A DNA stretch of 64,000 nt from Anaerolineae bacterium (GCA_963675785.1 OY776562.1:1824001-1888000), one strand, 5' to 3'; shown: positions 2,305 to 31,637, counted from the first letter of the stretch. The notes: generated from the sequence alone by a model not told the origin. Program-made: numbers and translations.

Positions 2305-2319
2305 TAGTCAACTTGCATT

Positions 2320-3222: not shown

Positions 3223-3274
3223 TATCATCCCACCTTCAATCTGCCCTGATCACTGAACAAGTTCTTCTTGTATA

Positions 3275-3318
3275 CAAAAGCACTCCATCAGCAGAATTCT
3301 GCTGACGGAGTGCTTTTG
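3275..3318. terminator. Intrinsic terminator
   Basis: AAAAGCACTCCATCAGCAG-aatt-CTGCTGACGGAGTGCTTTT. Confidence 0.85.
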
Positions 3319-3369
3319 TCTCTCGCTAGCCCTTACTCTTTCAATATCATTCGCAACGAGAATGGAGAG

Positions 3370-3630
3370 CAATTTTAGTACTGTTTACAGTTTTTATATT
3401 CTTATTTTATGTTTTTAATATCTTAAAATCACTTTATTCAAGTAAAAATACTAGTAAGATCATTCTGCAATTTTTATGTTAACTAATTATGTTAATAAAA
3501 TATCAATTTATGTTTAACTAGGATATTATGTCTAATAAATAATCATATCTATTTAACTATCGGTCTAAAATATTAGTAGATGTTAAGATAATTTTTACAT
3601 CTAGATATACTATTTTATTACTCTATTTAA
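3370..3630. promoter_or_regulatory. Very AT-rich non-coding block upstream of the archaellum operon
   Basis: Visibly far more AT-rich than the flanking genes, contains no ORF, and carries repeated TATGTT motifs. Confidence 0.5.
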
Positions 3631-3847
3631 CGCGCAGTTTATGCCCACTACCTGCATATAGCAGTATAAAAGAAGGGTATCCAGTGCACTTATCGCTCTG
3701 GAATTACAGGATTACCGAGTCTAGCTGATGTGTTCATCTCGCCAACACGATCACCCTTGACATCAGATAGACCAGGAGGAGGAGTGGTACGGAATGTACA
3801 AACAGTGGTGTCACAAAGCTTTTTCCAGAAGAGGAAAGGAACAGAAC

Positions 3848-4411
3848 ATGAACCGTCATTTGGAGTGTCGTAGAGACGACCGTGGTTTTACCGCACTGGA
3901 AACCGCCATTATTTTGATGGCTTTTGTGGTGGTCGCCTCGGTATTCGCTTTTACCATGCTATCGTCTGGCATGAGCTCTACTGAGCAGAGCAAGCAAGCT
4001 ATTGCAGCAGGTATGGAAGAAGTTTCCGGCAGTATGGAATTGCGCGGTAGCGTGATTGCAGCAGGCAGCGAAGATGCCGTAACTTCCGTCACTTTTTGCG
4101 TAGCTAATGCCGCAGGTGGAGACCCCATCGATCTTACGACCGGTGAGAACAACGTACTGGTTATCGACTATCGCACCACCGCAACCCGTACAGCCGACGT
4201 GGCCTGGACAGTAGCATGGCAGGGCAATAACGATGGCGATAGCCTTCTCGAAGATCGCGAACTGGCTGAGATCACCGTAGCCGTTCCTGCAGGATCCACA
4301 CTGAGCGCGAACACCGAGTTTGTGCTCGAAGTCCGACCTGAAAAAGGCGGCGTATTGGAAATTGAGCGAACCACTCCTGCCAAGATTGATGCAGTGATGG
4401 ACCTCGGGTAA
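3848..4411 (+). CDS. arlB: Archaellin (archaeal-type flagellin)
   Basis: Class III signal peptide RRDDRG/FTALETAIILMAFVVVASVFAF, archaellin motifs GGDPIDL and NNDGDSLLE, and C-terminal ERTTP...VMDL. Alternative in-frame start at 3794. Confidence 0.93.
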   Translation: MNRHLECRRDDRGFTALETAIILMAFVVVASVFAFTMLSSGMSSTEQSKQAIAAGMEEVSGSMELRGSVIAAGSEDAVTSVTFCVANAAGGDPIDLTTGENNVLVIDYRTTATRTADVAWTVAWQGNNDGDSLLEDRELAEITVAVPAGSTLSANTEFVLEVRPEKGGVLEIERTTPAKIDAVMDLG

Positions 4412-4476
4412 TTCGTCCACTCCTCCCTATGTCTCCGCCATTTGTGGCGAGTGGTGGGACACAGAGTTCACTCCTT

Positions 4477-4516
4477 GGTTTGAGCGGTTCACCTCCTTCG
4501 GTGGGCCGCTCAAACC
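4477..4516 (+). other. Strong intergenic hairpin without U-tract after arlB
   Basis: GGTTTGAGCGGTTCACC-tccttc-GGTGGGCCGCTCAAACC. Confidence 0.7.
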
Positions 4517-4535
4517 GCACCAAAAGGAAATCAAA

Positions 4536-5228
4536 ATGGCTGATCTCGAACAGCGCGTAAAACGTCTTGAAGGCGAACTTAGAATCCTGAAGAACCAAAT
4601 CCAGATGACTTTGCTGGATATTCAGGCTGAGTTGGCCGCCCATTATTATCCCGAATTGCGAACAGAGTTGGAGAGCATTCCCCAGGCTCCAAGAGCTGTT
4701 TCCGGGACGAAAGCCATAGATTCTAGAGCCAAGTCACAAGCCGCTTCTACACCATACGAAAATAACGATACACAAGAGCCCGATGATGCTGAACCAATAC
4801 TCTTGAAAAAAGTGTCTCTTGATCAAATCCATCAACAGCCTCCCAGACCACATGCTTCGCTCAAAGATGATCCGGATGAGCTGGAAATCGTTGATCAAAT
4901 GGTCGCTGTGGCCTATCCCGATCTGGATGATGCCGAACCTTTGCTGACAGAACGTGAGAACAATCTGTGCGCAGAGCCTCTCAATAATCCGATTATTCAA
5001 GCCAGTGTAATACGTTGGACTGGTGACACAGTCACTGTTCTTGGTAAAGAGCAAACGCGCAAGATCATTGAGCTTTGTATTCTGGATGGAAGAATAGATA
5101 AAAAATGGGCAGAGCGATTAAAGCGATTGCTTGATCTTGGCGCAGAGTACGAACCCGAAGAAACACCTTCATTTGATGCAGTACTCAATGCCATGGTTGA
5201 ACTGGTCGAGATTCTGGACGCCCACTAG
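4536..5228 (+). CDS. ArlC/D/E (FlaD/E)-like cytoplasmic archaellum accessory protein
   Basis: N-terminal coiled coil LEQRVKRLEGELRILKNQI..LLDI, acidic linker, and C-terminal W..D.V..LG.E..RKIIEL....G.I pattern resembling the FlaD/E domain. Lies between arlB and arlG. Confidence 0.65.
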   Translation: MADLEQRVKRLEGELRILKNQIQMTLLDIQAELAAHYYPELRTELESIPQAPRAVSGTKAIDSRAKSQAASTPYENNDTQEPDDAEPILLKKVSLDQIHQQPPRPHASLKDDPDELEIVDQMVAVAYPDLDDAEPLLTERENNLCAEPLNNPIIQASVIRWTGDTVTVLGKEQTRKIIELCILDGRIDKKWAERLKRLLDLGAEYEPEETPSFDAVLNAMVELVEILDAH

Positions 5229-5245
5229 AACAGCGGAGGCTATCG

Positions 5246-5758
5246 TTGGACCACCCTATTATTACGTCTCTCATGATCGTCGTAGCTGTGATTTGTGCAA
5301 TGCTTGTGTTCCAGGCAGTGTATCCTTCGGTGGTCCGCGGCTCCGATTCGGTAGTCTCGATGGAAAGACAGCTTTCTGAACGCCTCAAGACTGAAATAGC
5401 CATCATTCATGCTGCCTCAGAGCTTGATCCTGACGGCAATTGGCAAGATGTCAACCTGGATGGCGATTTTTCCAGCTTTATATGGGTCAAGAACCTTGGC
5501 GAAATTACCTTGAGCTCTGTTGAAAGCTGCGATGTTTTTTACGGTCCTGAAGGCAATTGGGCACGAGTTCCTTTTGAGGACGAAGCTGAAGGCGCTTATC
5601 CCTATTGGACATGGGAGCTGGAAAACGCCGAAACCTGGCAGCCAACGGCCACACTCAAGATAACCATTCATGATCTGTCGGTACCCGAATCGGGGCGGTA
5701 TCTTGCCAAAGTCACTACGCAAAATGGCATATCTGACGAGCTCTTGTTTGGGATGTAG
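5246..5758 (+). CDS. arlG: Archaellum protein ArlG (FlaG)
   Basis: N-terminal TM, then LSERLKTEIAII, WVKNLG, DVFYGPEG and W.P..TL.I motifs. TTG start with GGAGG RBS. Confidence 0.85.
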   Translation: MDHPIITSLMIVVAVICAMLVFQAVYPSVVRGSDSVVSMERQLSERLKTEIAIIHAASELDPDGNWQDVNLDGDFSSFIWVKNLGEITLSSVESCDVFYGPEGNWARVPFEDEAEGAYPYWTWELENAETWQPTATLKITIHDLSVPESGRYLAKVTTQNGISDELLFGM

Positions 5759-5760
5759 CC

Positions 5761-6282
5761 ATGGAAACGATTATCAGCTCGCTGATCATTCTTATGCTGG
5801 TGGTCTTTTCAGTGAGTAGTTATTCCAGCGCGATCGTAGAAAGCCAGCAACTCAATGCTGATGGCTGGCAAGCAGCACAAGCACGTGCAGCCGAGCAGAA
5901 TTCAACCAGCATCACCTTTGCGGGCCAAGATGCAGGAACAGATTACATTGACGCGACTCTGCTGAACGATGGTGATACTAGCCTGGCTAACATGGACGAG
6001 TGGGACATATTCATCTCGGCATATAACCAGGCAGGATCTCTTGTTGTGACGTGGCTGCCATATGAGCAAGCCGACACTTTGGGAAATTGGTGGCAAGATT
6101 CAGGGATATACATGGACGCCGCAGGAGGCAGTCCTGAAGTTTATGAACCAAAAGTATTCAATCCCGGTGAAGAGCTGGTCATACGCATTTGGTTGCCTGG
6201 CGGTTTGCAATCTGATTCAGCAGTAATGCTCAACATCGTAACCGACAGCGGGGCCCAGGCCCGCACTATATTCACACAGTAG
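5761..6282 (+). CDS. arlF: Archaellum protein ArlF (FlaF)
   Basis: N-terminal TM, LLNDGDTSL, FNPGEEL and IVTDSG motifs. Follows arlG. Confidence 0.8.
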   Translation: METIISSLIILMLVVFSVSSYSSAIVESQQLNADGWQAAQARAAEQNSTSITFAGQDAGTDYIDATLLNDGDTSLANMDEWDIFISAYNQAGSLVVTWLPYEQADTLGNWWQDSGIYMDAAGGSPEVYEPKVFNPGEELVIRIWLPGGLQSDSAVMLNIVTDSGAQARTIFTQ

Positions 6283-6289
6283 GGTAAAA

Positions 6290-6664
6290 ATGAAACAGAA
6301 TCATCCTTGCATTGTGCTTGTGGATGACGACCAGTGCCTGACCAGCATCCTGGAACTGGTTATGGCCAAAGAGGGCTACGACTTGGTCGTCGTTCATGAC
6401 GGCATTAATGGCCTCAAGAAAATCCGCGAATCCCATCCGGATCTGGCTATTCTGGATGCCATGCTGCCCGGACTGGACGGCCGGGATCTCTGCAGAATGC
6501 TGAAAGGTGATCCGAAGACAGCCAACATCCCGCTCATCATGTTCTCTTGTCTCATGGATCTCGATACTGTTGAGAACGATCTGCCAGCGGATGCTTTTAT
6601 CACCAAACCAGCTCCAGTTACACATCTCCTTGAAACGATTCGAGACAGCTTAGCGAGGGTTTGA
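6290..6664 (+). CDS. Single-domain CheY-like response regulator
   Basis: VDDD, phospho-acceptor ILD.MLPGLDG, FS and FITKP; no output domain. Confidence 0.92.
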   Translation: MKQNHPCIVLVDDDQCLTSILELVMAKEGYDLVVVHDGINGLKKIRESHPDLAILDAMLPGLDGRDLCRMLKGDPKTANIPLIMFSCLMDLDTVENDLPADAFITKPAPVTHLLETIRDSLARV

Positions 6665-6665
6665 C

Positions 6666-7730
6666 GTGCCCGCTCACATTCTGGTTATCGACAGCGATAA
6701 ACAAGCATTGACTGAAAGCATACGCCTGCTCCAGGGCTGTGACTTTGAGGTCACTTCTGCATCGGATTCACAGGTGGGCCTGGCTATGGTATCCACAAGC
6801 GAACCAGATCTGATCATGGTAGATGCGCTGTTGGAAGATCAGGGCTGCGAAGAGATAACACGGATGCTGCGGCTAGACCCAAAGACGCGAGACATTCCCA
6901 TCATTGCCACTATCCCAGCAGAACGCCTCAGCGATCTGATGATCGGCACCGATAGCTATTGGGATGAGTGGCTGCTCAAGCCGTTTACGCGAGAAGATGT
7001 GACTCTCAAGATTGAGCAGCTCATCAAGCCAAGCAGTCATTCGCGCAGAAATGGCGTCGTCTCTACAGGCAGCCACGAGCTGGACAGCAAAATGGGCGGC
7101 GGCATTCCCCTGGGATCCCTTACATTGATCGAAGGAACTTCAGGCGCAGGCAAGTCTGTTTTGGCCCAACAACTCATGTGGGGATCTCTCAAAGGAGGCT
7201 TTCGCCTGTCATCGTTTACTACCGAGAACGGCGTCAAAAGCCTAGTACAGCAAATGCGCAGCCTCAGTCTGGATATCACAGATTTCGTGCTGCTGCGCCG
7301 TCTGCGCATCATCCCCGTTGAAGTATCTGGCTTGGGGAAAAATGCCCCTACTGCCTTACTGGGAGCAATGAGATCTGAAACTGGGACCGACATTATCGTT
7401 GTAGATTCCCTAACGGCGCTTATCAACGGGTGCACCGACCCGCAGGTGCTTGGTTTTTTTGAAGGAGCCAAACGCATCTGTGCAAACGGCACAACAGTCT
7501 TGATCGTTCTGCACTCTTATGGTGTTACACAAGACCTGCTAACACGTCTCAGATCCCTATGTGATGCTCACTTACGCTTGAGCACAGAAGAAATGGGCCA
7601 AAAGCTGGTTCACATGCTCGAAGTAACCAAAGTTCGCGGCGCAGATCGCACCACGGGCAATATCGTCAGCTTTGATGTAGAGCCTGGATGGGGCATGCGC
7701 CTCATTCCTGTTAATAAAGTCAAGGGATAG
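6666..7730 (+). CDS. arlH: Receiver (REC) domain fused to ArlH (FlaH) KaiC/RecA-like ATP-binding protein
   Basis: aa 1-120 are REC (ILVID, DLIMVD, LLKPF). aa ~130-354 are FlaH (STGSHELDSKMGGGIP.GSL.LIEG.SGAGKS, IIVVDSLT, LEVTKVRG, F.VEPGWG). Confidence 0.9.
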   Translation: MPAHILVIDSDKQALTESIRLLQGCDFEVTSASDSQVGLAMVSTSEPDLIMVDALLEDQGCEEITRMLRLDPKTRDIPIIATIPAERLSDLMIGTDSYWDEWLLKPFTREDVTLKIEQLIKPSSHSRRNGVVSTGSHELDSKMGGGIPLGSLTLIEGTSGAGKSVLAQQLMWGSLKGGFRLSSFTTENGVKSLVQQMRSLSLDITDFVLLRRLRIIPVEVSGLGKNAPTALLGAMRSETGTDIIVVDSLTALINGCTDPQVLGFFEGAKRICANGTTVLIVLHSYGVTQDLLTRLRSLCDAHLRLSTEEMGQKLVHMLEVTKVRGADRTTGNIVSFDVEPGWGMRLIPVNKVKG

Positions 7731-7733
7731 TTA

Positions 7734-9413
7734 ATGGCTGGACGCGATTTACCCTTTTTGCATGTTATGACCAATCAAGGCTCACCACTTGTTCAAATCG
7801 CGGGCATGAGCCCGGAGCTTGAAGAGCAAATAGCCCTGCATCCTTTTCTGGGCGACTATTTATCCCAGGTGCCTATAGAGGAGATCGGGGTACCTGAATA
7901 CTATGAGCAGGTTAGTCGTTCTCTGGGGAAAACGTCCTATCACAATTTCATCTACCCCACTGATGATGGATTATTCGTACACATTTATCCGAATCCTCTG
8001 GGAGGACGCGATTATTGGGTTCCTATAGAACCAGACCTGACACTTGATCTGACAGGGGTTACTGAAGATCTGGAAGCGTTATTGGTGGATTATGCCGAAG
8101 ATATTGGCATGGCCGAAGACCCGGATGAAAAGAAAGCCCTGCTTTTGCAGGCTGTTGATGAGATATGCACGCTGAATCCTACCGAAGCTGAATACCGCTT
8201 GTTGGTAACAGAGCGAGAGCTTGAAGGTCTCAAATATCACGTCGTACGTGACAAGATTGGTTTGGGAACTCTGCAACCCCTCATCTCTGACCCATATATT
8301 GAAGATATTAGCTGCAGCGGCATTGGTCCGGTGTTTGTAGAACACAAGGTCTTTAAGAGCCTACAGTCGTCCATTACCTTTGAAACGATGGATGAACTCG
8401 ACGACTTTGTAGTGTGGTTGGGAGAGTGCATCAAACGGCCCGTTACTGTGCGTAACCCCATTGTGGACGCTGTACTGCCAGACGGCTCTCGTATCAATAT
8501 CGTGTATGGACGTGAGATTGCTACACGAGGCAGTAACTTTACCATCAGAAAATTCTCGGATACGCCGATCAGCATTCTGGAATTGATCGACTTTGGCACG
8601 CTCAACTATGACATGGCCGCCTACCTCTCGCTCATTCTGGAGGAAGGTTTGAACATGTTTGTCGTCGGCGCTACGGCCTCTGGCAAAACCACTACGCTCA
8701 ACGCGCTGACCACATTCATTCTGCCTGATGCCAAAGTCGTCACCATCGAAGATACGCCCGAAGTCAAAATCCCACATGGAAACTGGTGCCGAGAAGTTAC
8801 GCGAGCATCGGGCAATGGCGATACAAAAGCCGCTGGCGTCGATATGTTCGAATTGCTCAGAGCAGCCCTACGACAACGCCCCGACCGTATCATCGTCGGC
8901 GAGATCCGTGGCGCAGAAGGGGCAACCGCCTTTCAGGCCATGCAGACTGGCCACGGTGTCATGGCAACCTTTCACGCCTCATCAGTCATCAAACTGGTAC
9001 AGCGTTTGACGGGTAGCCCCATCAATATTCCCAAAACATATATGGATAACCTGCATGTAGCCCTTATTCAGAGCGCAGTGCGAGGACCAGACGGCCGTAT
9101 GGCCAGGCGCGTAACAAGCATCAACGAGATCCTGGGGTACGATCCGGTCTCTGAAAGTTTTTCGTTCATTGAGGTTTTCCGCTGGAACTCGGCCAACGAT
9201 ACATTCGAGTTTCCCGGGAACATGAACAGCTTTTTACTTGAGGATGTCATTGCCCTCAAGCGCGGCTTGCCGCCCAACCGCCGTAAAGAAATCTATGACG
9301 AGATTCGCAAACGAGCGAGGATTTTCAGACGCCTTCACGAAGATAGAGGTATAAGTTCCTTTGACGACTTTTTCCGTGTCCTCTCAGAAGCACACCGACA
9401 AGGTCTCCTCTGA
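7734..9413 (+). CDS. arlI: Archaellum motor ATPase ArlI (FlaI)
   Basis: DPYIEDISCSG, Walker A GATASGKTT, Asp box TIEDTPE, Walker B IIVGEIRG and His box QTGHGVMATFHA. Confidence 0.95.
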   Translation: MAGRDLPFLHVMTNQGSPLVQIAGMSPELEEQIALHPFLGDYLSQVPIEEIGVPEYYEQVSRSLGKTSYHNFIYPTDDGLFVHIYPNPLGGRDYWVPIEPDLTLDLTGVTEDLEALLVDYAEDIGMAEDPDEKKALLLQAVDEICTLNPTEAEYRLLVTERELEGLKYHVVRDKIGLGTLQPLISDPYIEDISCSGIGPVFVEHKVFKSLQSSITFETMDELDDFVVWLGECIKRPVTVRNPIVDAVLPDGSRINIVYGREIATRGSNFTIRKFSDTPISILELIDFGTLNYDMAAYLSLILEEGLNMFVVGATASGKTTTLNALTTFILPDAKVVTIEDTPEVKIPHGNWCREVTRASGNGDTKAAGVDMFELLRAALRQRPDRIIVGEIRGAEGATAFQAMQTGHGVMATFHASSVIKLVQRLTGSPINIPKTYMDNLHVALIQSAVRGPDGRMARRVTSINEILGYDPVSESFSFIEVFRWNSANDTFEFPGNMNSFLLEDVIALKRGLPPNRRKEIYDEIRKRARIFRRLHEDRGISSFDDFFRVLSEAHRQGLL

Positions 9414-10887
9414 AGCAGAGGAGATACATGCGGCACAAAACGAGAGCTACTCTGCTTTTCAGTTCTACTACCAGCTGATTTACATGTCGGCTGTCGCAGC
9501 GGCGGGGCTTTCGCGCAACCAGGTGTTTGACCTGGGAGCCAAGCTTAATTGTGTGGTAGCACCCTATTTTGCCGACGTTCAAACCCTGGTAAGTAGTCTG
9601 CATTATGACTACCCACGGGCCTGCCGTGTGGTAGGTGGCCGCTGCAAAGAGACTGACGTTGCCAGTTTTTTGCTGCGCCTTTCCGATGCACTAGAAGCTG
9701 GGGAGAGCCTTCCGGGATTTCTAACTCACGAGGCTGGAGTGCAACGCAATGTTTATGTGAACGAATATGAGCGCAATCTGGATTCGATGCGAAAATGGAC
9801 CGACGCTTATGCATCGCTCATCGTTTCCATGGCGTTGATTGTGATCATCAATCTCGTTTCAACCATGATCTACGATATGGGCAATACTTTGATGATGCTC
9901 TTTGTAGGTACAGCCTGCCTGTTCAGTGCAGGCGGCGCCTGGGTAGTTACCCGTTCAACACCGCGAGAAAGACTAGCTCTTTGTGAAGGCCCCGGCTCGG
10001 AGGAACAGCAACGTATTCGACAAATGGGCACGATCGCACTTCCCATAGCGCTGGTAGGCTCGCTGATACTGGGGTTAATTCATGCTGGATGGGGTTGGGT
10101 AATGATTTTTACAGCATTGGTAACAGCTGTACCCGGCCTATTGGCATGGCAGTCAGAATCCCGCCGCATCCGCAAAGAAAAAGAATTCTCAGCCTTTATG
10201 CGATCGCTGGGAAGCATGGCCAGCTCCACAGGAACCACAGTCTCTGAAGCTCTGACACGCATGGATCTCAACTCGTTTCCAACACTGGCTCCTGACGTGC
10301 TTAGGCTATCGAGTCGTTTGAAGGCACGTATTGCGCCCCAGGTATGCTGGAATCATCTTGTTCAGGAGACAGGAAGCCAGCTCATCAATTATGGTGTGCG
10401 CGTATTTGTCGATGCGGTGATTCTGGGCGGGGACCCAAAAGAAACCAGTACACTCTGTTCGCAATTCATCTCGCAGACAACCATGCTTCGTGAAAAACGT
10501 GCTGCTATTTCTTCTTCGTTTAGCGGTTTGGCCATCATCATGCATGCCATTTTGGCAGTTTTACTGCTGCTCATTTTAAACATCGTGCTCAGTTTCAGAA
10601 GTCTTGTTTCCAGTTACATGGATGAGAATCTGTCAGCAGACATGATCAGCTCTATCAACATCCCTTTGATGAGCTTTGACGGCTCTCAGCTTGCTCTGGT
10701 ATCCACACTGACCATCGGAATGACGCTTTTTCTGGTGTTTGTCGATGCAGGTGCGCTTATTGGGACGGATGGCGGATTCAAGCCCAAAGCACTCGCCTAC
10801 TATGCTGTGGTCGCTGCATTAACAGGTATATGTTTCTTTGTTATTCCGCCAATGATTCAGTCCGTCATGTTGCAGGCAATTGCCTAG
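9361..10887 (+). CDS. arlJ: Archaellum membrane platform protein ArlJ (FlaJ)
   Basis: YMSAVAAAGLSR, YERNLDSMRKWTDAY.SL, multiple TMs and two T2SSF-like domains. Start uncertain (TTG 9361 or GTG 9376, both overlapping arlI). Confidence 0.9.
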   Translation: MTTFSVSSQKHTDKVSSEAEEIHAAQNESYSAFQFYYQLIYMSAVAAAGLSRNQVFDLGAKLNCVVAPYFADVQTLVSSLHYDYPRACRVVGGRCKETDVASFLLRLSDALEAGESLPGFLTHEAGVQRNVYVNEYERNLDSMRKWTDAYASLIVSMALIVIINLVSTMIYDMGNTLMMLFVGTACLFSAGGAWVVTRSTPRERLALCEGPGSEEQQRIRQMGTIALPIALVGSLILGLIHAGWGWVMIFTALVTAVPGLLAWQSESRRIRKEKEFSAFMRSLGSMASSTGTTVSEALTRMDLNSFPTLAPDVLRLSSRLKARIAPQVCWNHLVQETGSQLINYGVRVFVDAVILGGDPKETSTLCSQFISQTTMLREKRAAISSSFSGLAIIMHAILAVLLLLILNIVLSFRSLVSSYMDENLSADMISSINIPLMSFDGSQLALVSTLTIGMTLFLVFVDAGALIGTDGGFKPKALAYYAVVAALTGICFFVIPPMIQSVMLQAIA

Positions 10888-10895
10888 GGGGCACA

Positions 10896-12014
10896 ATGAT
10901 CATTCAGTCTCTCAAAAAGCAATGGTTCATCATACTGCTCGGCTTGATCCTTACACTGATTCCAACACGTATCGCGTTGGGGCAGACACCCAATCACGAA
11001 TCAGCACTAGTAAGTGGTGATACACTTGAAGTGCTTACAGATGTGGTACAGGCTTATCAGACCGACGGTGATTTGCTTGAGGCCATGCGTTCGCTGGATA
11101 CCTGGGACACGGATGTGCTCCTTGTAGCCATTGGAGCACTTGAAAATGACGAGTCTGATGCCAAGCTTGCCGAAACAGCAGCCACTCTGCATAAAGAGCT
11201 TTTGCTTCCGGACGATACAATCCAGATTGGCGATCTCTTGAAAAAAACACCAATCACTCTGGTTCTGGCTCTATCTATTGGGCTCCTTGCCGTCGGAAGC
11301 ATACTGCTCATGCTGCCACAAAAGGTCGTATCACATGCGGTATTACATGCTGATGCCTTTACTCAGAGGGTCAGCGAAGCCAGAACCGATCTTAAGACTG
11401 CTGCCAACAATCCTCAAAATGACTCTGAAGATAACCTCGATGACCTAATCGGCAGCATTGCAGAGATAGGCGAAAGCGTAGATAATGACAAAGGTTTGCT
11501 CTCTGAAACGGCCAGTGGTTCAATCAAACCTGAAAGCGAGAACCAAGAACCCACTGAAAATGAGGCCGACGAAAGCAGCTCCCGTGCTGTAACCACTGTC
11601 AAGCTTGATGCTGAGCAAGCCCCACACGTTGTCCAAGCGGACAAAGTGGGTAAGACGGAACAGACCAGTGAGATCAAGCCCTCGGCGACGCCGGAAACTG
11701 TGCCCGCGACTCCATCTCAACAGCTCCAGAGCCAGGATTCGGGGGCAGCCGACGCTGCTGCAAGTGCAGGGAGCAGCCAACAGGGGATCGCTAGCAGTAC
11801 AAGTGCACCCGAAGTAGCTCCCCAGGAGCCTTCTGCAAAAGACAATGTTGCAGCGTTGCTCGAGGACGTATTCTCGGATGATGAACAAGGGTCAGAAGAT
11901 CTCAAGATACTCGATGAAGGATTGGAAGACATCGAGATGACCCAGATGATCAAGACTATGCTCGAACTTAGCCGGCGACTAAGAGAACTCAACAGAGCAG
12001 AGCAATCTGTTTGA
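10896..12014 (+). CDS. Unknown membrane protein of the archaellum operon (signal peptide, small external domain, TM, long acidic low-complexity tail)
   Basis: Hydrophobic N-terminus ending IALG/Q, a second TM ITLVLALSIGLLAVGSILLML, a D/E/S/T-rich tail and an amphipathic C-terminal helix. Starts 8 nt after arlJ. Confidence 0.7.
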   Translation: MIIQSLKKQWFIILLGLILTLIPTRIALGQTPNHESALVSGDTLEVLTDVVQAYQTDGDLLEAMRSLDTWDTDVLLVAIGALENDESDAKLAETAATLHKELLLPDDTIQIGDLLKKTPITLVLALSIGLLAVGSILLMLPQKVVSHAVLHADAFTQRVSEARTDLKTAANNPQNDSEDNLDDLIGSIAEIGESVDNDKGLLSETASGSIKPESENQEPTENEADESSSRAVTTVKLDAEQAPHVVQADKVGKTEQTSEIKPSATPETVPATPSQQLQSQDSGAADAAASAGSSQQGIASSTSAPEVAPQEPSAKDNVAALLEDVFSDDEQGSEDLKILDEGLEDIEMTQMIKTMLELSRRLRELNRAEQSV

Positions 12015-12024
12015 TAGGAGCCAC

Positions 12025-13611
12025 ATGCCAGCCAGAAGTGGTAGCGGCCAACCCCAGATTAAGAATTCACCCACGCGATCGAAAAAAGAGCGCGCGGGTC
12101 TCTTGTTGATTCTGGCCGGGCTTGTTGTGCTGGCATTGCCGTTCTACCTTGTTTACAATACATTATCGGGGCGTGAACAAGAAGCAGCCATAGAGATTGA
12201 GACACTGGCAACAGCTTTGAACGCTACTGCCACACCCGATTCGCAAATAGAAACCCTTGAGGCTCAGCTGGAAGTTGCACAAGCAAATCGTGATGCTCTC
12301 ATTACAATTACCAATGAGCTGAATGCGCAAACGGATGCCTGGCCGGAAATTCTGAACGCCCTGGCCAATTATGATGCGACGCAGCTGCGCCTTGAGGAAA
12401 TCAGTCAATCCGAATCGCAAATCGTTCTACAGGGCTCTGCCGTAAATGATCAAGTTGTTATGGACTATACCCAGAACCTGCAAGACTCGTCTTGTTTTGA
12501 GCGTGTGGTCATACAATCGATACAGGTTGTAGAAAAAGCTTTCGTCCAAGAAGCTGCCTCGACGGCTACACCGGCAGTAGTTAACAGATCTACCGCAACA
12601 AGTACACCCGTGGCCACAACCACAACCACCGCCACTGTCCTCCCTGAGGGCGATGCCTACGAGCAAGATGATACGACGCCTAATGATATTTATCCCGATA
12701 AAGCCCAAGAGCATACGTTTTATCCACCTTATGACGTCGACCTTGTGCAATTCCTGGCAAAATCAGGACGTTATTACCGCGTCTATACAACCGATCTGGA
12801 ACCCGGCGTAGATACCAGTCTCACCATTACGCTGGGAGATCAGATTTATGTCAATGATGACCGCAGCAACGGAGATCTGAGCTCAGAGCTCGTCATTGCT
12901 GTCCCAGCGGGTACGGATGTGGAAGCGCTCGTCCAGATAACGAACAGAGGACAGTACGGGACTACCCAAAGCTATGTCATCGTCGTCGAAGAGATTTTGG
13001 CGAGCACCAGCACGCCCACACCAGAGACGACAGCGACACCGCAGGCCACAGCCACTCCGGCCAGCGCTGCCACAGCGCGACCAACTTATGGACTCGAAGA
13101 TGTGTATGAGCCAGATGATTATGATGCCGCTGAATTGGTCGTTGGGCAATCACAAATTCGCACTTTTTCACCGGAAAAAGACATCGATCAGGTTGTATTC
13201 CAGGCGCTTCCCTCTCACCGTTATGAGATAGCAACATCCTGGTTATATCCGGATGTAGATACCAGCCTGGTTGTATATGTTGGTGAAGTAGCATACACAA
13301 ACGACGACTGCAGCAATGGGGAAGCTAGATCCTGCATCACCATAGATATACCGGCAGGAGAAACCACTCTTGTTACAGTAAAAGTCACCAACAACGGCAC
13401 ATTTGGCCCTGGGCAGCTTTACACACTGGGTGTGACAGATATGGGCATCTATAACACATCGATGAACAATCGCGAAGCACGCAAGTCCGATGTCGAGCAA
13501 GTGCACTTTGTGCAAACAGCTACATCCGCGTCGCACAAGCTCAAACCAGCCAGTGAAACCACCACGTCAGTGCAATTCTCCATTTTGCTCATTATTGAGG
13601 AATCCGAGTGA
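12025..13611 (+). CDS. PilN-domain protein with two tandem beta-rich repeat domains
   Basis: TM plus coiled coil, then WPEILNAL...LRLEEISQ...IVLQGSA....VMDY..NL..S..F..V (PilN pattern), T/P-rich linkers and two D.YE.DD...DVD/DID...VDTSL repeats. Confidence 0.75.
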   Translation: MPARSGSGQPQIKNSPTRSKKERAGLLLILAGLVVLALPFYLVYNTLSGREQEAAIEIETLATALNATATPDSQIETLEAQLEVAQANRDALITITNELNAQTDAWPEILNALANYDATQLRLEEISQSESQIVLQGSAVNDQVVMDYTQNLQDSSCFERVVIQSIQVVEKAFVQEAASTATPAVVNRSTATSTPVATTTTTATVLPEGDAYEQDDTTPNDIYPDKAQEHTFYPPYDVDLVQFLAKSGRYYRVYTTDLEPGVDTSLTITLGDQIYVNDDRSNGDLSSELVIAVPAGTDVEALVQITNRGQYGTTQSYVIVVEEILASTSTPTPETTATPQATATPASAATARPTYGLEDVYEPDDYDAAELVVGQSQIRTFSPEKDIDQVVFQALPSHRYEIATSWLYPDVDTSLVVYVGEVAYTNDDCSNGEARSCITIDIPAGETTLVTVKVTNNGTFGPGQLYTLGVTDMGIYNTSMNNREARKSDVEQVHFVQTATSASHKLKPASETTTSVQFSILLIIEESE

Positions 13612-14519
13612 AGCGCAAGAAACGCTGGATAGACACCATTCCGTGGGCCAATATACGCTACAGTCTGCCCACCATGGCCATAGCCTTGTTGGCTATGGGC
13701 TATCTTATAGCTGCCATGATGATTCTTTTGCCGCAATGGCAATCAGTCAATAGTTTGATTGCGGAGATCAATCAGGATCGCGATGAACTCTTGAGCATTC
13801 GCCGTAATGCGCTCGAGTTGCCGGGCAAATTGGATGACGAAATCTCTGCAGCCAAGGCACAACTGGATACATTGCGCCAAAGCCTGATGGACCGAGACAC
13901 CGCTGCTGCTCTTCTCGACCAGCTTTATGTGATCTCTTTGGGGAACGATGCTCAAATCGTTGATCTGCAAAGCCAGCCATCGCCTGAAGTAAATAAAGAA
14001 GCCATGTATGACATCAGCAGTTTCAAGGTCAATGTACAGGGCAACGTCAAAGACATTCTGGCGTTCTTGAGGCAAGTTGAGGCTATCAGTGCTGGCACCG
14101 CGACACAGATCGGCGAATTTGAAATAGCCTCTACGGATGAAACCGATCTATCGCTGCTCTCATTTACCATGACGCTCTATACACGCACCGATCAGACAGA
14201 GATGACACCTTTGGTATCAAATGTATCAGAAGATACCGAACAGGATACGGAAGACACAGAGCTTTTGGAGAAACCAGAGGATTGGCCATCCGATTGGTCC
14301 TGGCCACCCAGCTCTCCGCTTTTGGATGACCAAACCGAGACAACGTCGATAGCAATCCCTCAAAGCTATATCAGCCACACCATCGCTGAGGGAGAGACCT
14401 TGTTGGGTATCGCCCTACAATACGGCGTATCTGCCGAGGTGATTTCACAACTGAACGGGCTCGACGTCCGTGCATTTGTCATTGGGGATACCCTACAGAT
14501 CCCTGTCTACGCCCAATAG
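13608..14519 (+). CDS. PilO-like protein with C-terminal LysM domain
   Basis: TM plus coiled coil, then F.V.VQG....ILAFL..VE (PilO/GspM pattern). C-terminal HTIAEGETLLGIALQYGVS...I..LNGL......GDTL.IP is a LysM domain. GTGA overlap with the upstream gene. Confidence 0.78.
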   Translation: MKRKKRWIDTIPWANIRYSLPTMAIALLAMGYLIAAMMILLPQWQSVNSLIAEINQDRDELLSIRRNALELPGKLDDEISAAKAQLDTLRQSLMDRDTAAALLDQLYVISLGNDAQIVDLQSQPSPEVNKEAMYDISSFKVNVQGNVKDILAFLRQVEAISAGTATQIGEFEIASTDETDLSLLSFTMTLYTRTDQTEMTPLVSNVSEDTEQDTEDTELLEKPEDWPSDWSWPPSSPLLDDQTETTSIAIPQSYISHTIAEGETLLGIALQYGVSAEVISQLNGLDVRAFVIGDTLQIPVYAQ

Positions 14520-14639
14520 ACCTCAGCATTACTTGCCCACTCTCACCCTCTATATAGCACTTGCTCACAGTTGCCTTTTCGTGCATAGTGCTGATGTTAT
14601 GCTTTACGGTCCCATATGTACGAATATTTGGAGGATGAT

Positions 14640-15824: not shown

Positions 15825-15836
15825 TCAGCAACAAAC

Positions 15837-15874: not shown

Positions 15875-15915
15875 GCCTGATTTCAGTATCGATGCATGTA
15901 GATGCTACGCTCGCC

Positions 15916-22688: not shown

Positions 22689-24053
22689 TTGAAGGTCACG
22701 ACCGAAACCGTTGCCCCCCGCGAAGTAAAGCTCACCATTGAGCCCGACGCGGACAAGCTGCTCAAGGCGCGTCGCGCCGCAGCTCGCTCCATTTCCCAGT
22801 ATCGTCCAATTGCCGGTTATCGCCCGGGCAAAGCCCCACTAGAGATGGTTGAACGCATCTTTGGTGTAGACGTTGTTTTGGACGAAGCCCTGAATACCAT
22901 CTCCGAAAGTCTCTATCGTGATGCAGTCAAAGAAGCTGAGCTCGATCCGTATGAGCCCGGACAGTTTGAAATTGAATCCCGCGATCCGCTTGTGGTAACA
23001 TTGAATGTTTCGCTCATGCCGACGATCGACCTCGGTGACTACAAGTCGCTGCACGTTGATCCTCAGCCCGAGCCCGCTGTTACCGATGAACAGGTCGACG
23101 AGGAGATCCAGGAGCTGCGTGAGCAGAATCTGGAATACGAACCCGTTGAGCGCATCGCAACCATTGGTGATCAAGTTGTGCTAGATATGCGCGGCGAGAT
23201 TGATGGGGAAACTGTCGTTGAAGAGACCGGTACAGAGATGCTGGTCAACGCTGATGTGGAGCCTATTGGTCTTGCTGAAGTCCTTGTTGGTAAGGCCGCT
23301 GGCGAGACGAGCACTGCAGTGTTGTCTTACTCGGACGGCTTTGAGAACCAGGAACTGGCAGGCAAGAGTATTACTATGACGATTACCGTGCAGACGGTGC
23401 GTGAGCCCAAACTGCCCGAAGTCGATGACGAGTTTGCCAAGGATGTAAGCGAGTACGAGACACTTGATGAACTCAAGAACTCGATCAGCGAGCGCCTTCT
23501 CGCGCAAGCCCAGGCAGAGGCTAATGCCACCGAGCGCAGAGCAGTCATTACTGCCTTGGTTGAAAATGCTACCATTGAATACCCTGTGGCAGCCGTTGAC
23601 CACGAACTGGATGCGGCAATCAATCGGCAAAAGAGCCAGATTGCCCAAATGGGGCTCGAATGGCAGGCCTATTTGCGCATGATCGGTACTGATGAGCAGG
23701 CACTGCGCGACCAAAATCGTGAGGACGCTGAAGAGCGACTCAAGGACTCGCTGGTTCTTTCCGAGTTCTCGCGAGCCGAAGAGATTACGGTCTCGCCGAA
23801 CGAGATTGAAGAACAGTTGAACCTATACGCCGCCATGTATGGCAGCGCAGATCAGGCCGATGAAATCAAGCGGCAACTCATCGCTAATGGCGCTATTTGG
23901 TCTATTGAAAGCGACTTGCGCACGCAGCGGGCGCTAGACCATCTTCTTGCTCTACTCACTGGTCGTGAGCTTGAAACAGAGCTAGAAGCTGAAGAACCGG
24001 CTCCAGAGGAAACCGTGTCAGAGGAATCAACAGAAGATTCCGAGACAGAGTAA
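22689..24053 (+). CDS. tig: Trigger factor
   Basis: GYRPGKAP ribosome-binding motif, FKBP-like domain and DDEFAK. TTG start with GGAGG; upstream of clpP-clpX. Confidence 0.95.
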   Translation: MKVTTETVAPREVKLTIEPDADKLLKARRAAARSISQYRPIAGYRPGKAPLEMVERIFGVDVVLDEALNTISESLYRDAVKEAELDPYEPGQFEIESRDPLVVTLNVSLMPTIDLGDYKSLHVDPQPEPAVTDEQVDEEIQELREQNLEYEPVERIATIGDQVVLDMRGEIDGETVVEETGTEMLVNADVEPIGLAEVLVGKAAGETSTAVLSYSDGFENQELAGKSITMTITVQTVREPKLPEVDDEFAKDVSEYETLDELKNSISERLLAQAQAEANATERRAVITALVENATIEYPVAAVDHELDAAINRQKSQIAQMGLEWQAYLRMIGTDEQALRDQNREDAEERLKDSLVLSEFSRAEEITVSPNEIEEQLNLYAAMYGSADQADEIKRQLIANGAIWSIESDLRTQRALDHLLALLTGRELETELEAEEPAPEETVSEESTEDSETE

Positions 24054-24170: not shown

Positions 24171-24791
24171 ATGAGCTCTGACGCACTGGTCCCCATGGTC
24201 GTTGAATCCAGCGGTCGCGGTGAGCGAGCGTATGACATTTATTCGCTCCTGCTCAAGTCCCGAATTATCTTTCTTGGCACACAGATCAACGATCAAGTCG
24301 CAAACCTTATCGTTGCCCAAATTCTATACCTAGCCCACGAAGATCCCGAACGCGAGATTCGCATGTACATCAACTCGCCGGGCGGCGTCGTCTATTCGGG
24401 CCTGGCTATTTACGATACCATGCAACTCGTTAGCTGCCCCATCGAGACCATTGCCGTGGGCAGCACAGCCAGCATGGGGACAGTTCTACTTGCGGCTGGC
24501 ACACCCGGCCGACGCTATGCCCTGCCGAATGCAACCATCCACATTCATCAGCCGTTGGGTGGCGCTCAAGGTCAGGCCAGTGATCTGCAAATCCAGGCCA
24601 ACGAGATCTTGCGTCTTCGCAAGCGCTTGAATGGCATCTTGGCTATGCACACAAGCCAACCCATGGAACGCATCGAAGTGGATACCGATCGTGATCACTT
24701 TATGGATGCTGACGAGGCTCTGGCTTATGGGCTGGTGGACCATATCATCAACCCGGCTGAAAAAGCGGGGACTGTAGAGGAAAAAGAATGA
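24171..24791 (+). CDS. clpP: ATP-dependent Clp protease proteolytic subunit
   Basis: YINSPGG, ASMG (Ser), IHQPLGG (His) and DRD (Asp). Confidence 0.97.
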
Positions 24792-26038
24792 CGGGCACCA
24801 CTCAAACCGAGGCGCAATGCTCCTTTTGCGGACGCCCCGAACATATGGTTGGTCGTCTGATCAACGGTCCGGATGGTATTAATATCTGTGATTCGTGCGT
24901 ACAGCTCTGCCAGCGAATTCTGGAAAGCGAAGCTGAAGAAGACGATCTTCCGCCTCTCTCGTTGAGTCAGGTACCTACTCCACGCGAGCTTTCTGCCGCC
25001 CTTGACGAGTATGTCATTGGGCAGGAACGCGCCAAGCGTGTTCTTTCTGTAGCCGTGTACAACCACTATAAGCGAATTTCGGTACAGGGCTCGGTGGATG
25101 CCAACGCTGATGTCGAGCTATCCAAGAGCAACATCCTGCTGTTGGGGCCAACGGGCTGCGGCAAAACGCTTCTTGCCCAAACGCTGGCTCACGTGTTGGA
25201 TGTACCCTTTTGCATTGCGGATGCAACCTCGCTCACTGAAGCCGGCTATGTCGGTGAGGATGTAGAGAACATCCTCACTCGCCTACTGCAGGCTTCGGAC
25301 TATAACGTCAAACGAGCAGAGCGGGGTATCATTTATATTGACGAGATCGACAAGATCGCCCGTAAAACCGGCGGCAATCCCTCGATCACCCGCGATGTCT
25401 CGGGGGAGGGTGTACAGCAAGCCTTACTCAAGATATTGGAGGGCACCGTAGCCAACGTGCCCCCGCAGGGCGGCCGCAAGCACCCGCATCAAGAATTCGT
25501 TCAACTGGATACGTCCAACATCCTGTTCATCTGTGGCGGAGCCTTTGACGGCCTTGAAGAGGTCATCGGCAAGCGCGTCGAAACGGGCATGGACATGGGC
25601 TTTAATGCCGCTAAACGCGGCAAAGCCGAGCTTTCGGCAGTTCTGGAAAAGGTTGCCGGTGAAGATCTGGTGCATTACGGTCTGATCCCCGAGTTTGTCG
25701 GACGCGTGCCCGTCATCGCCACAGTACAAAGCCTTGACGAAAATGACATGGTGCGCATTCTCATCGAGCCGCGCAACGCCCTGATACGACAGTACAAACG
25801 GCTCTTTGCCCTGGATAATGTCGAACTCACCTTTACCGAAGAGGCCCTCAGAGCGGCAGCTCACGAGGCCATCCAATCCAAGATGGGTGCGCGCGGCTTG
25901 CGCAGCATTATCGAAGAGACACTTTTGGATGTGATGTATGAACTCCCCTCACATCCTGAAATCACGGCCTGGGCGGTAGACGCAGAAACTGTGGCAAAGC
26001 GTCACGACCGCAATCCGGATATTCAGCAAGCGGCATAA
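24788..26038 (+). CDS. clpX: ATP-dependent Clp protease ATPase subunit
   Basis: CSFCG zinc finger, [26 protein letters not shown] and GARGLR. Confidence 0.97.
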
Positions 26039-26140: not shown

Positions 26141-26170
26141 ACGTTGAATTCTTTACTGGGAGACTGCTTG

Positions 26171-30131: not shown

Positions 30132-31637
30132 TTGGCAGTCGTAAGCGTCTATCATCTCACGCGTCGAGACACAGTTTATACGGCGCGTGAGCTTTTGCGT
30201 CAGGCTGAGCCCGAAAGTGAAGTCTGGCTTGTACTACCCTGGCGCGTCGCCTGGGCTCGCAAACAGGTCAATCTTGAGCTGCTCAAGCGCATGGCATACA
30301 CCGCAAATGTCGATCTGCACCTCGTTACCCGCCATATCGAAACTCGCGAGATGGCTATAGAGACGGGCTTGCGCGTTCATACCTTTATTCCCATCTCGCT
30401 GGCCAAGAATGAGCAATCGACCACAACGCCCGAAGCAGAAAGCCGCTTCAGAAACGCCAAGAGGCGCGCAGCCAGTCAGCAGGAGCGAAAATCATTTAGC
30501 GTCGGCAGCGCTCTTTGGGGACTAGCCACTGTGCTATTACTCGTTGGCGTCCTTGGTGGTGTGATGGCTATTTTCGTGCCTCAGGCAGAAGTCACCATCA
30601 AGCCGCAAGCCGAGCCTGTCGAAGCCCAGTTTACCGTGACTGTAAACACGGAATACACCAGCATTGATTACGGCCGCGCCATGATACCAGGTAAGAGCGT
30701 CCAGGTGATCGTCGAAGGGCGAGGCGAATCGGCGGCTTCTGGCAGCACAGAAATTGCTGGAACGCATGCTACAGGCAATGTAGTTTTTGCCAATCGCACC
30801 TCGCAGACCGTTACTGTACCCCAGGGTACTATTGTACGCACCAGTTCCAGTTCGCCTGTGCGCTTTTATACCACTGCGGATGTAGAGATCGCCGGACAGA
30901 TCAACGCCATCGCCAGTGTCCAGGTTATCTCGGTGGATGCTGGCCTAGAGAATAATGTCAATGCCTGGACCATTAACGTAGTAGAAGGTGAACTCGCCAA
31001 CTCGGTCAGCGTGCTCAATGCAGAAGGTTTGTACGGTGGCGGCAACACCAGTGTGCCTGTCATCGCCACAGAGGACTTTACAACCGTGCGTGATGAGACG
31101 ATCGAACTGCTGGGAAGCCAAGCATATGAGCAGCTCTTGGCCGAACTGGATGAGGGGGAGTTCATCCCGGCTGATACGCTCGAAGTGCTGGTCATGTCGC
31201 AAGAGTACGATCAGGTGGTTGGGCAACAGAGCGACACCATCAGCATTAGCATGAAAGTTGTGGCTCGAGGAACTGTTATATCCAGCGATGATCTGACCGA
31301 TTTAGCCATGGCCATGCTAGAAAGCAAAGCGACAACGGGCACTTCACTCATCGAGAGCAGCATCGCTGTATCACGTTCAGCCACTTTGCTAAACGATGAC
31401 GGCAATGTAACCATGACTCTTGAGGCTCGGGGCATGGCGGCGCCAGAGATCGATACAGAGGCCCTATTGGACGAGATCGCTGGCAAGAGCAGCGACAAGG
31501 CCATAGAGATTCTGATGGAAGCCGTTTCACTCACCGAAGAACCCACCATCGACATCTCGCCCGAAAGCTGGAACAAGTTGCCCTACCTACAGGGGCGTAT
31601 CACATTCAATGTTTCAGCGCAGGTACCCGAAGAATGA
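30132..31637 (+). CDS. Membrane-anchored 'baseplate J/gp47-like' protein (Chloroflexota/CPR type)
   Basis: Cytoplasmic N-domain, TM, then ATG.V.F.N....V.VP.GT.V, V.F.T, G...NV....I and V.N.....GG motifs. No phage genes nearby. Confidence 0.7.
   Translation: MAVVSVYHLTRRDTVYTARELLRQAEPESEVWLVLPWRVAWARKQVNLELLKRMAYTANVDLHLVTRHIETREMAIETGLRVHTFIPISLAKNEQSTTTPEAESRFRNAKRRAASQQERKSFSVGSALWGLATVLLLVGVLGGVMAIFVPQAEVTIKPQAEPVEAQFTVTVNTEYTSIDYGRAMIPGKSVQVIVEGRGESAASGSTEIAGTHATGNVVFANRTSQTVTVPQGTIVRTSSSSPVRFYTTADVEIAGQINAIASVQVISVDAGLENNVNAWTINVVEGELANSVSVLNAEGLYGGGNTSVPVIATEDFTTVRDETIELLGSQAYEQLLAELDEGEFIPADTLEVLVMSQEYDQVVGQQSDTISISMKVVARGTVISSDDLTDLAMAMLESKATTGTSLIESSIAVSRSATLLNDDGNVTMTLEARGMAAPEIDTEALLDEIAGKSSDKAIEILMEAVSLTEEPTIDISPESWNKLPYLQGRITFNVSAQVPEE

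Follow-up and report, generated by a model that had tools for sequence, protein, structure and literature searches.

The 64,000-nucleotide (nt) stretch of DNA analyzed here (the window) comes from the chromosome of an Anaerolineae bacterium (GCA_963675785.1, OY776562.1:1824001-1888000) and carries, on its + strand at positions 3794-14519, eleven co-oriented and closely packed open reading frames (ORFs), all open, that correspond to an operon for an archaellum, the archaeal-type flagellum (Table 1). The spacing between successive genes of the operon ranges from a 58-nt overlap, as called from the longest ORFs, to a 124-nt gap. An earlier note, made from the sequence alone, had described such a tightly spaced operon, and each of the eleven genes that it named was found on the + strand. 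We consider it highly likely that the locus is a bona fide arl2-type Chloroflexota archaellum operon, carried on the chromosome of a peptidoglycan-making, Anaerolineae-type bacterium and working along the lines proposed below. The feature that concerns us most is its ArlH protein, which bears an N-terminal response regulator receiver domain (REC) and is hereafter called REC-ArlH.

Table 1. Archaellum operon of the window and bacterial genes on the same contig (positions counted from the first nucleotide of the window)
Feature	Positions	Strand	Basis
Upstream intergenic region, AT-rich, probable promoter/regulatory region	3320..3793	+	position-based inference only
arlB, archaellin with class III signal peptide	3794..4411 (alternative start 3848)	+	Pfam/NCBIfam
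arlCDE-like; N-terminal coiled coil, acidic linker, C-terminal ArlD/E-like domain (149-230)	4536..5228	+	profile-profile match
arlG, stator, ahead of arlF as in arl2-type loci	5246..5758	+	weak NCBIfam + synteny
arlF, stator	5761..6282	+	weak NCBIfam + synteny
Single-domain response regulator (REC, "cheY-like")	6290..6664	+	Pfam Response_reg, 63.5 bits
REC-ArlH fusion; receiver 1-120, flexible linker ~121-130, KaiC-like ArlH domain 131-354	6666..7730	+	
arlI, archaellum motor/assembly ATPase	7734..9413	+	NF058587, 627.1 bits
arlJ, membrane platform protein; longest ORF overlaps arlI by 53 nt, true start uncertain	9361..10887	+	
Membrane protein, no family match	10830..12014 (likely start M23 at 10896)	+	
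PilN-like bitopic protein, two C-terminal repeats of ~115 amino acids	12025..13611	+	Pfam PilN
PilO-like protein with C-terminal LysM peptidoglycan-binding domain	13608..14519	+	Pfam PilO, LysM
tig	22689..24053		
clpP	24171..24791		
clpX	24788..26038		
alaS	26144..28813		
ruvX	31634..32059		
mltG/YceG	32056..33204		

Identity and chromosomal setting of the operon

Searches with Pfam and NCBIfam profiles, a check that the earlier note had proposed, placed ArlB, REC-ArlH, ArlI, PilN, PilO, and LysM each above a family cut-off. ArlI matched the archaellum equivalog model (cut-off, 550 bits) with 627.1 bits, versus 215 bits for the bindosome ATPase BasE and 163 bits for TadA, and among solved structures it matched FlaI (4ii7) with 442 bits and CpaF with 152 bits. 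Its Walker A (G312-T320) and Walker B (D384-G393) motifs are invariant in 6/6 aligned sequences; Walker A and B residues are present in ArlH as well, and the ATP motifs of both proteins are intact, as the note had read them.

For comparison with other archaellum loci, we used the best 80 loci (the named loci) that an ArlI alignment retrieved when species-representative genomes were scanned. Of these, 70 are labeled Chloroflexota, 8 Archaea, and 1 "uncultured bacterium," and 1 more is on a 3-kb contig binned as Terracidiphilus; Litorilinea aerophila is not among them. An ArlI tree of 98 rows (quick search, LG+G4) was rooted on four Tad-like ATPases and contained no archaeal pilus ATPases. The window ArlI grouped in it with archaeal and Chloroflexota ArlI, apart from the Tad-like outgroup, and had the ArlI of locus L027 as its sister (Shimodaira-Hasegawa-like approximate likelihood ratio test [SH-aLRT], 99), both lying within a 33-row clade (SH-aLRT, 99). 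The 8 archaeal rows formed one clade (100) amid unresolved Chloroflexota groups, a topology compatible with, and not independent proof of, the euryarchaeal (Methanotecta) origin published on the basis of a 431-sequence ArlIJ tree (PMC12488501).

Could the locus encode another archaeal-type or Tad-type pilus instead of an archaellum? We regard this as very improbable. The Tad pilus (CpaF/TadA) of bacteria likewise belongs to the type IV filament machines and has archaeal ancestry, and a Tad-like ATPase does stand beside an A24 peptidase at ~2.80 Mb in this genome; unlike the window, however, the Tad pilus is without ArlH, an ArlF/G stator, and archaellin. ArlJ, ArlG, and ArlF fall under their curated cut-offs, as would suit a different pilus, but the locus encodes an ArlH of FlaH fold, and its ArlB is closely related to the filament protein of a solved archaellum. 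Grouping of ArlI with Tad or archaeal pilus ATPases, the outcome that the earlier note had named as fatal to its claim, is contradicted by the score against NF058587, by the score against FlaI, and by the ArlI tree.

Several points nevertheless weigh against the identification and have to be set beside these results. The three best NCBIfam matches of ArlJ are all ArlJ/FlaJ models, and all are below cut-off (NF004703, 344.5 bits with a cut-off of 570; the other two, 216.9 bits with a cut-off of 400 and 180.7 bits with a cut-off of 550); Pfam T2SSF matched the protein in two stretches, and the gene is syntenic with ArlJ in all relatives. The NCBIfam matches of ArlG (28.2 bits) and ArlF (20.5-21.6 bits) are weak and under the cut-off of 110; both proteins gave BLAST matches to genes at the equivalent position in archaeal archaellum loci as well as syntenic matches in relatives. 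The quick-search trees of ArlI and ArlH have an unresolved backbone, with just 8 archaeal sequences sampled, and no RNA run is on record among the sequencing runs listed for the locus.

The ArlCDE-like protein had no family match in single-sequence searches of Pfam and NCBIfam. We compared a profile of 15 Chloroflexota homologs with a profile of 7 archaeal proteins from the equivalent locus position, 6 of which gave sub-threshold matches to Arch_fla_DE. The two profiles were aligned by hhalign with a probability of 99.2% and an E value of 2.2e-19 over 89 columns, corresponding to residues 149-230 of the window protein, and this match justifies the name ArlCDE-like.

ArlB matched Pfam Arch_flagellin with 93.6 bits (cut-off, 29.5), the sole match to this family in the whole genome, and the N-terminal domain model TIGR02537 with 29 bits. 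Its best solved relative was the sequence of PDB entries 9i5h/9sie/9sii (E value, 1.5e-51), of which 9SIE and 9SII are the archaellum filament of L. aerophila (PMC12488501), and its N-terminus aligns with the mature end of that archaellin. Since T33 of the 205-amino-acid ORF is aligned with residue 2 of the solved chain, mature ArlB should begin at F32 (F32-TALETAII) after a cut behind G31, a predicted start comparable to the mature Ile29 start reported for L. aerophila (PMC12488501). The genome has two above-cut-off Peptidase_A24 matches, both outside the locus: one, at C1:2796959, adjoins the Tad-like ATPase, and the other, at C1:1904372, lies ~16 kb beyond the window.

The genome consists of one closed contig of 3,217,757 bp (completeness, 94.84%; contamination, 1.29%), and the bacterial genes that the earlier note had placed on the contig with the operon, from tig to mltG, are indeed there (Table 1). 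In sequencing run X1, which may be the source sample, a 69-kb contig spans window positions 1-18727 without any difference. Run X5 comes from another study and gave contigs over 2702-5796, 7419-14839, and 14841-17627, and run X4, from a third study, over 3076-4436 and 4730-13251. The junction between the short-chain dehydrogenase/reductase gene and arlB is thus bridged in all three studies, and that between pilO and the alcohol dehydrogenase gene is bridged by X1 and X5; the other studies' runs contain a near-identical locus with scattered substitutions only. Because contigs of three studies bridge the ends of the operon into bacterial genes, we conclude that the operon is not a chimera. An archaeal fragment joined to bacterial DNA by misassembly or contamination is practically out of the question: we found no point in its support, the G+C content of the operon being ~0.50 and that of the flanks 0.44-0.56, and the same locus occurs in bacterial contigs of many relatives. 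The assembly breakpoint that the note had held out as a refutation is likewise gone, given the closed contig and the junctions bridged by independent runs.

The last two genes of the operon encode PilN-like (31 bits; cut-off, 22.8) and PilO-LysM (25.4 bits for PilO and 31.7 bits for LysM, both above cut-offs) proteins. The two repeats of the PilN-like protein (12610-13440), recognized from self-similar tblastn matches, are separated by Thr/Pro/Ala-rich linkers and have no Pfam match; relatives have more repeat copies, as in the PilN of L022, which reaches 935 amino acids. A likeness of these repeats to pre-peptidase C-terminal domains receives no support from Pfam. From the alignment complex PilMNOPQ, only PilN and PilO domains were seen at the locus, where our search for this complex ended, no genome search for PilM, PilP, and PilQ having been made; the three are reported absent in L. 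aerophila (PMC13319060). The membrane protein encoded upstream of pilN has a signal/transmembrane segment, an outer domain of ~95 amino acids, a second transmembrane segment, and a long acidic low-complexity tail. It matched no Pfam or NCBIfam family, and a weakly similar gene stands at the equivalent position in 9/80 named loci. The presence in the genome of transpeptidase (five matches) and Mur-ligase (seven matches) genes indicates that the bacterium makes peptidoglycan.

The earlier note had called such loci rare but not unprecedented in Chloroflexota, and this agrees with the literature, which has already covered the class and its horizontal origin as well as the idea about PilN/PilO-LysM. 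Hug et al. (2013) described a Chloroflexi genome with an operon for archaeal flagella; Sivabalasarma et al. (Nat Microbiol, 2025; PMC12488501), from 3,780 Chloroflexota genomes, reported 243 with archaellum loci and, for L. aerophila, archaellum filaments, swimming cells, and a 2.7-Å cryo-electron microscopy structure; and Joest et al. (Front Microbiol, 2026; PMC13319060) proposed PilN/PilO-LysM as a scaffold through the peptidoglycan. With the class published in 2013 and 2025 and the anchoring idea in 2026, the novelty of the operon itself is low. The published Chloroflexota loci have the arlGF order, arlCDE and cheY homologs, and an external PilD/PibD, and pilN and pilO-LysM are reported for L. 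aerophila (PMC12488501). The same set was found here: arlB, an arlCDE homolog, arlG before arlF, a cheY-like gene, and arlHIJ, with pilN and pilO-LysM near, the signal peptidase outside the locus, no flagellum, and no CheF. The window departs from L. aerophila in that pilN and pilO-LysM are directly downstream and co-oriented, whereas the paper places them in the neighborhood and once "upstream" (PMC12488501), and it departs from the main-text accounts of L. aerophila and other Chloroflexota archaella in the N-terminal receiver of ArlH (PMC12488501, PMC13319060). Beyond Chloroflexota, the core order ArlB-ArlD/E-like-ArlG-ArlF-ArlH-ArlI-ArlJ is shared with euryarchaeal arl2-type loci (Methanosarcinales, Methanophagales, Methanomicrobiales, and Halobacteria metagenome-assembled genomes among the named loci), whose ArlI is 48-53% identical to that of the window.

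Two side observations concern ArlI. Two tandem arlI genes occur in the Dehalococcoidia-type loci L061, L064, L080, L083, L091, L094, L095, L101, and L102, and in several of these the copies fall into separate subclades of the ArlI tree. The locus on the Terracidiphilus-binned contig (L090; 3,022 bp; Acidobacteriota) has an ArlI pair nested in a Dehalococcoidia clade, beside L095_2 (SH-aLRT, 99), a placement that probably reflects misbinning of the contig rather than the presence of archaella in a second bacterial phylum.

A receiver domain fused to ArlH

REC-ArlH scored 246.5 bits against the FlaH model NF004723 (cut-off, 194) and 33.0 bits against Response_reg (cut-off, 30.2), and its score of 193.4 bits against the ArlH equivalog NF052589 is below the cut-off of 215. 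The ArlH part matched Sulfolobus FlaH (4yds) with an E value of 4.9e-27 and contains a Walker A motif (G157-S164, including K163), the catalytic Glu (E187), and the Walker B residue D247. The residue of Sulfolobus ArlH aligned with E187 is the catalytic Glu-57 (SaArlH E57), which is named by de Sousa Machado et al. (bioRxiv 2021.03.19.436134). In an AlphaFold2 model of the full protein (mean pLDDT [predicted local distance difference test score], 76.2), the receiver was modeled with a regular (beta-alpha)5 fold at a pLDDT of ~90, and linker residues 124-128 were below 50. A Foldseek search with this model returned 4yds as the best match (template modeling score, 0.85, target-normalized; root mean square deviation, 2.9 Å), the next non-KaiC match being Methanocaldococcus FlaH (4wia). 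The main texts of the archaellum literature that we searched contain no description of a REC-ArlH fusion, which supplements or source data may show.

The fusion recurs in relatives of the bacterium. In a family/class sample of 41 genomes, the window's own included, ArlI was above the cut-off in 6, and 3 more scored 507-535 bits with matches cut by contig ends. When the loci of six relatives were fetched, a full-length REC-ArlH was present in 6/6, with 52-57% identity across residues 1-354 or 1-352. Three of these loci (L022, L023, and L024) share the order ArlB-ArlCDE-ArlG-ArlF-REC-REC-ArlH-ArlI-ArlJ-(gap or gene)-PilN-PilO, and contig ends truncate the remaining three. In the protein collection, 2,118 proteins match REC-ArlH at an E value of <=1e-10, and among the 120 matches listed, all have PF00072 and PF06745 and every organism name is Chloroflexota, Anaerolineae, or Anaerolineales. 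ArlH is fused to a receiver in 16/80 named loci, present as a fused copy plus a plain copy in 2/80, plain in 53/80, including all 8 archaeal loci, and not seen in 9/80, mostly on cut contigs; the fusion thus occurs in 18/80 named loci and in 0/8 archaeal loci. In an even sample of 401 genomes across the phylum, an ArlH match (E value, <=1e-30) was found in 8 and a match to the full fusion in the window's genome only, a result that says little on the frequency of the fusion because the sample had one other genome of the window's family and five candidates were scored per genome.

All fusions fall inside the 33-row clade of the ArlI tree, the nine plain loci of which form one subclade (100) of the Aggregatilineales type; the fusion is thereby confined to a single clade of Anaerolineae-type loci. 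In a tree of ArlH domains, 19 fused rows stand together with the plain copies of L054 and L055 (SH-aLRT, 84), and the plain ArlH of the Aggregatilineales type (99) is their sister. The Aggregatilineales clade is nested in the ArlI tree (SH-aLRT, 97) and sister in the ArlH tree (84), and a single origin of the REC-ArlH fusion is compatible with both topologies. The nine Aggregatilineales-type loci (L028, L029, L031, L032, L033, L035, L040, L048, and L104) resemble the window in belonging to the same ArlI clade and in having PilN and PilO (detected in 8/9), but differ from it in their plain ArlH, in the lack of an adjoining REC, and in an ArlF of ~215-396 amino acids versus 173.

Further features of these loci were noted in passing. 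In L054 and L055, a plain second ArlH follows directly on REC-ArlH (6183-7994 in L054); since the two ArlH domains are mutually closest (SH-aLRT, 100), the pair reflects a recent tandem duplication with one copy devoid of a receiver. In the two Aggregatilineales-type loci that were scanned, L032 (6086-7243) and L040 (6025-7164), ArlF has ~380 amino acids and two cadherin-like domains (Cadherin_3, 132-142 bits), as if the stator had been refitted here in another bacterial way.

Receivers have five canonical residues, namely, two acidic-pocket Asp/Glu residues, the phospho-Asp, a Thr/Ser switch, and a Lys. All five are present in the stand-alone REC encoded directly upstream of REC-ArlH (D12, D13, D56, S86, and K106, from an alignment of 15 orthologs). 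This protein is without an insertion of ~17 residues, between the fourth-strand region and the KP motif, that was seen in all 14 aligned orthologs. The fused receiver, aligned to PleD and RpaA, has three of the five (D9, D53, and K105), the second acidic-pocket Asp being replaced by Ser (S10) and the switch Thr/Ser by Ile (I83). Among 120 homologs, position 9 is Glu in 95 and Asp in 22; position 10 is Ser in 58, Asn in 18, and Gly in 11; position 11 is Asp in 101; the phospho-Asp position 53 is Asp in 92, Gly in 11, and Ser in 9; the switch position 83 is Ala in 95; position 105 is Lys in 113; and position 106 is Pro in all 120. With two canonical residues missing and a phospho-Asp that is not universal, the fused receiver is maybe not phosphorylated in the usual way, a point against the signaling route proposed below. 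It is an atypical receiver, which may either accept a phosphoryl group and signal differently or serve as a docking pseudo-receiver.

Under the second of these options, the fused receiver would not itself be the phospho-switch but a structural or docking module working independently of phosphorylation, for instance, a site for the phosphorylated stand-alone REC or a dimerization element. The residue counts above favor such a role, and so does the company that the fusion keeps: the canonical stand-alone REC lies directly upstream, and under a strict adjacency rule (a REC-only ORF of <=200 amino acids, <=1.2 kb upstream of ArlH), a stand-alone REC precedes ArlH in 11/18 fusion loci versus 0/53 plain loci, several further loci having, by eye, REC ORFs just beyond the rule. 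We nevertheless think this rather unlikely, considering that the phospho-Asp, the Lys, and the Pro are largely kept, which is unexpected for a purely structural domain, and that the modeled fold is normal. Structure-predicted binding of the stand-alone REC to REC-ArlH and the ArlCDE-like protein gave a median score of 0.43, with one unrelated-partner control at 0.47, and thus speaks neither for nor against such an interaction. Unlike the window, 8/8 archaeal loci have a plain ArlH of 248-262 amino acids, no PilN/PilO, and, under the same strict rule, no adjacent REC.

Flanking sequences

Upstream of arlB, a GGAGG ribosome-binding site precedes the ATG at 3794, and three sigma-70-like matches lie at 3384-3611 on the + strand; in a promoter/terminator scan of the sequence, such sites were no commoner than in shuffles (8 found versus 13.5 expected). 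A tRNA cluster (Lys-CTT, Leu-TAG, and Gly-GCC) occupies 22237-22511, just upstream of tig. Between alaS and ruvX, at 28833-31637 on the + strand, two ORFs of 428 and 501 amino acids have no Pfam match at an E value of <=0.001. Downstream of mltG, at 33270-36773 on the - strand, an ORF of 1167 amino acids has two ABC-permease (BPD_transp_1/OppC_N) regions and, at its C terminus, an M28 peptidase domain, an unusual fusion. Finally, the - strand of a low-GC stretch at 55126-59429 (0.451 versus ~0.54 around it) encodes an AAA_5-type ATPase of 934 amino acids and a DUF2357 plus PD-(D/E)XK nuclease protein of 536 amino acids, a pair that we take to resemble a McrBC-type restriction system.

Signaling and the working of the motor

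The genome has no match, at an E value of <=0.001, to CheF (PF04283), the CheA dimerization domain (PF02895), CheW (PF01584), the signaling domain of methyl-accepting chemotaxis proteins (MCP; PF00015), or histidine phosphotransfer domains (Hpt; PF01627), each of these searches being positive in 3-9 of 14 control genomes. When the CheA-REC and histidine kinase-Hpt proteins of L030 were used as queries, only the REC, HisKA, and HATPase portions were matched, and no CheA ortholog was found. FlhA has no match in the genome either, so there is no bacterial flagellum export gate. Ordinary histidine kinases are many. The nearest one to the operon is a GAF/PAS hybrid kinase of 1192 amino acids with a C-terminal receiver (17633-21211, - strand, ~3 kb downstream), which is preceded by a MEDS-domain gene (17633-21897 for the two, - strand); without an Hpt, it is the nearest candidate kinase for the receivers of the operon. 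Relatives have kinases in the cluster itself: in the fusion-bearing loci L030 and L044, a gene for CheA-REC and one for a REC-HisKA-HATPase-REC-Hpt kinase stand a few kilobases upstream, in one co-oriented cluster with REC and REC-ArlH, and in L103 and L026, GAF-kinase-REC-Hpt genes lie upstream in the cluster. That no kinase is linked to the operon in the present genome adds to the points against a signaling role of its receivers.

Receivers and kinases also cluster elsewhere on this chromosome. A group of receiver and histidine kinase genes outside the window (C1, ~519985-526000) includes an ORF of 647 amino acids that matches both REC (523981-524346) and the T2SSE ATPase (525013-525471) and may be a receiver-fused type IV pilus ATPase; several relatives have ORFs of 639-661 amino acids with similar ATPase matches.

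ArlH is the protein at which the archaeal switch complex docks. In archaea, CheY is coupled to the motor via CheF and ArlCDE (PMC7534055), whereas in the window's genome neither CheF nor CheA, CheW, and MCP were found. CheF is reported to be absent from Chloroflexota, where "another protein component" may relay the signal to the motor (PMC12488501). The phosphorylation state of archaeal ArlH controls its oligomerization and its binding to ArlI (bioRxiv 2021.03.19.436134), which would place a receiver on ArlH at the signal entry of the archaeal motor, and by analogy, the fused receiver could modulate the ArlH-ArlI equilibrium. We tentatively propose, as a reading with somewhat less than even chances, that the ArlH-fused receiver is the substitute for CheF in bacterial archaella, through which kinases would act directly on the rotary ATPase, adaptor and switch proteins being dispensed with. 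The input would come from CheA or Hpt relays in relatives and from ordinary histidine kinases in this genome, in which case kinases would gate the archaellum of this bacterium, making it an on/off or speed-controlled motor (chemokinesis) rather than a chemotactic one.

From the known archaellum systems, we infer the following route of assembly, rotation, anchoring, and signaling in this organism. Pre-ArlB would be cut after G31 by either of the A24 prepilin peptidases encoded in the genome, and a hexamer of ArlI on the ArlJ platform would use ATP to assemble the ArlB filament and then to rotate it. The KaiC-like ArlH would sit beneath ArlI and gate it, the ArlCDE-like protein would form the cytoplasmic ring, and ArlG and ArlF would be the stator. 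PilN and PilO-LysM, components borrowed from the type IV pili of bacteria, would tether the machine to the peptidoglycan. Ordinary histidine kinases would act via the stand-alone REC and the fused REC to switch or tune the motor, the receivers altering the interaction of ArlH with ArlI or with the ArlCDE-like protein.

The operon might instead be intact yet unused for swimming, either as a silent or rarely expressed relic or as the source of an adhesive, non-rotating filament. The absence of a chemotaxis system, the RNA record noted above, and the history of L. aerophila, which was long called non-motile and makes archaella on semi-solid plates only (PMC12488501), would all fit, but the eleven ORFs are open with their motifs intact, the order and sequence of the locus are kept across family-level relatives, and the near-identical copies in other studies' runs show scattered substitutions only. 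ArlG, ArlF, and ArlH are retained as well; ArlF and ArlG are reported to serve the rotary machine in archaea (bioRxiv 2025.02.02.636118), as ArlH does, and we judge disuse for swimming to be improbable. The earlier note had gone further and inferred a functional, horizontally acquired archaeal machine refitted with bacterial parts. The bacterial parts are there, in the form of REC, REC-ArlH, PilN, and PilO-LysM, while function is suggested by the intact genes and by the precedent of L. aerophila.

An archaeal motility machine in a bacterium is thus real and no longer new, and the present locus adds a closed and well-assembled genome to the ~240 archaellated Chloroflexota cataloged so far. What is less described is REC-ArlH, which, in a genome without chemotaxis genes, is a worthwhile lead on a question that the field itself has stated. 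The conserved fusion is a concrete and testable candidate for the signal-carrying component sought by the authors of the 2025 study, and it is supported by two contexts, that of relatives with CheA or Hpt kinases in the cluster and that of this genome without chemotaxis genes. REC-ArlH may be the missing link between signaling and the motor of the bacterial archaellum; if so, a foreign rotary machine would have been wired into bacterial two-component signaling through a single domain fusion.

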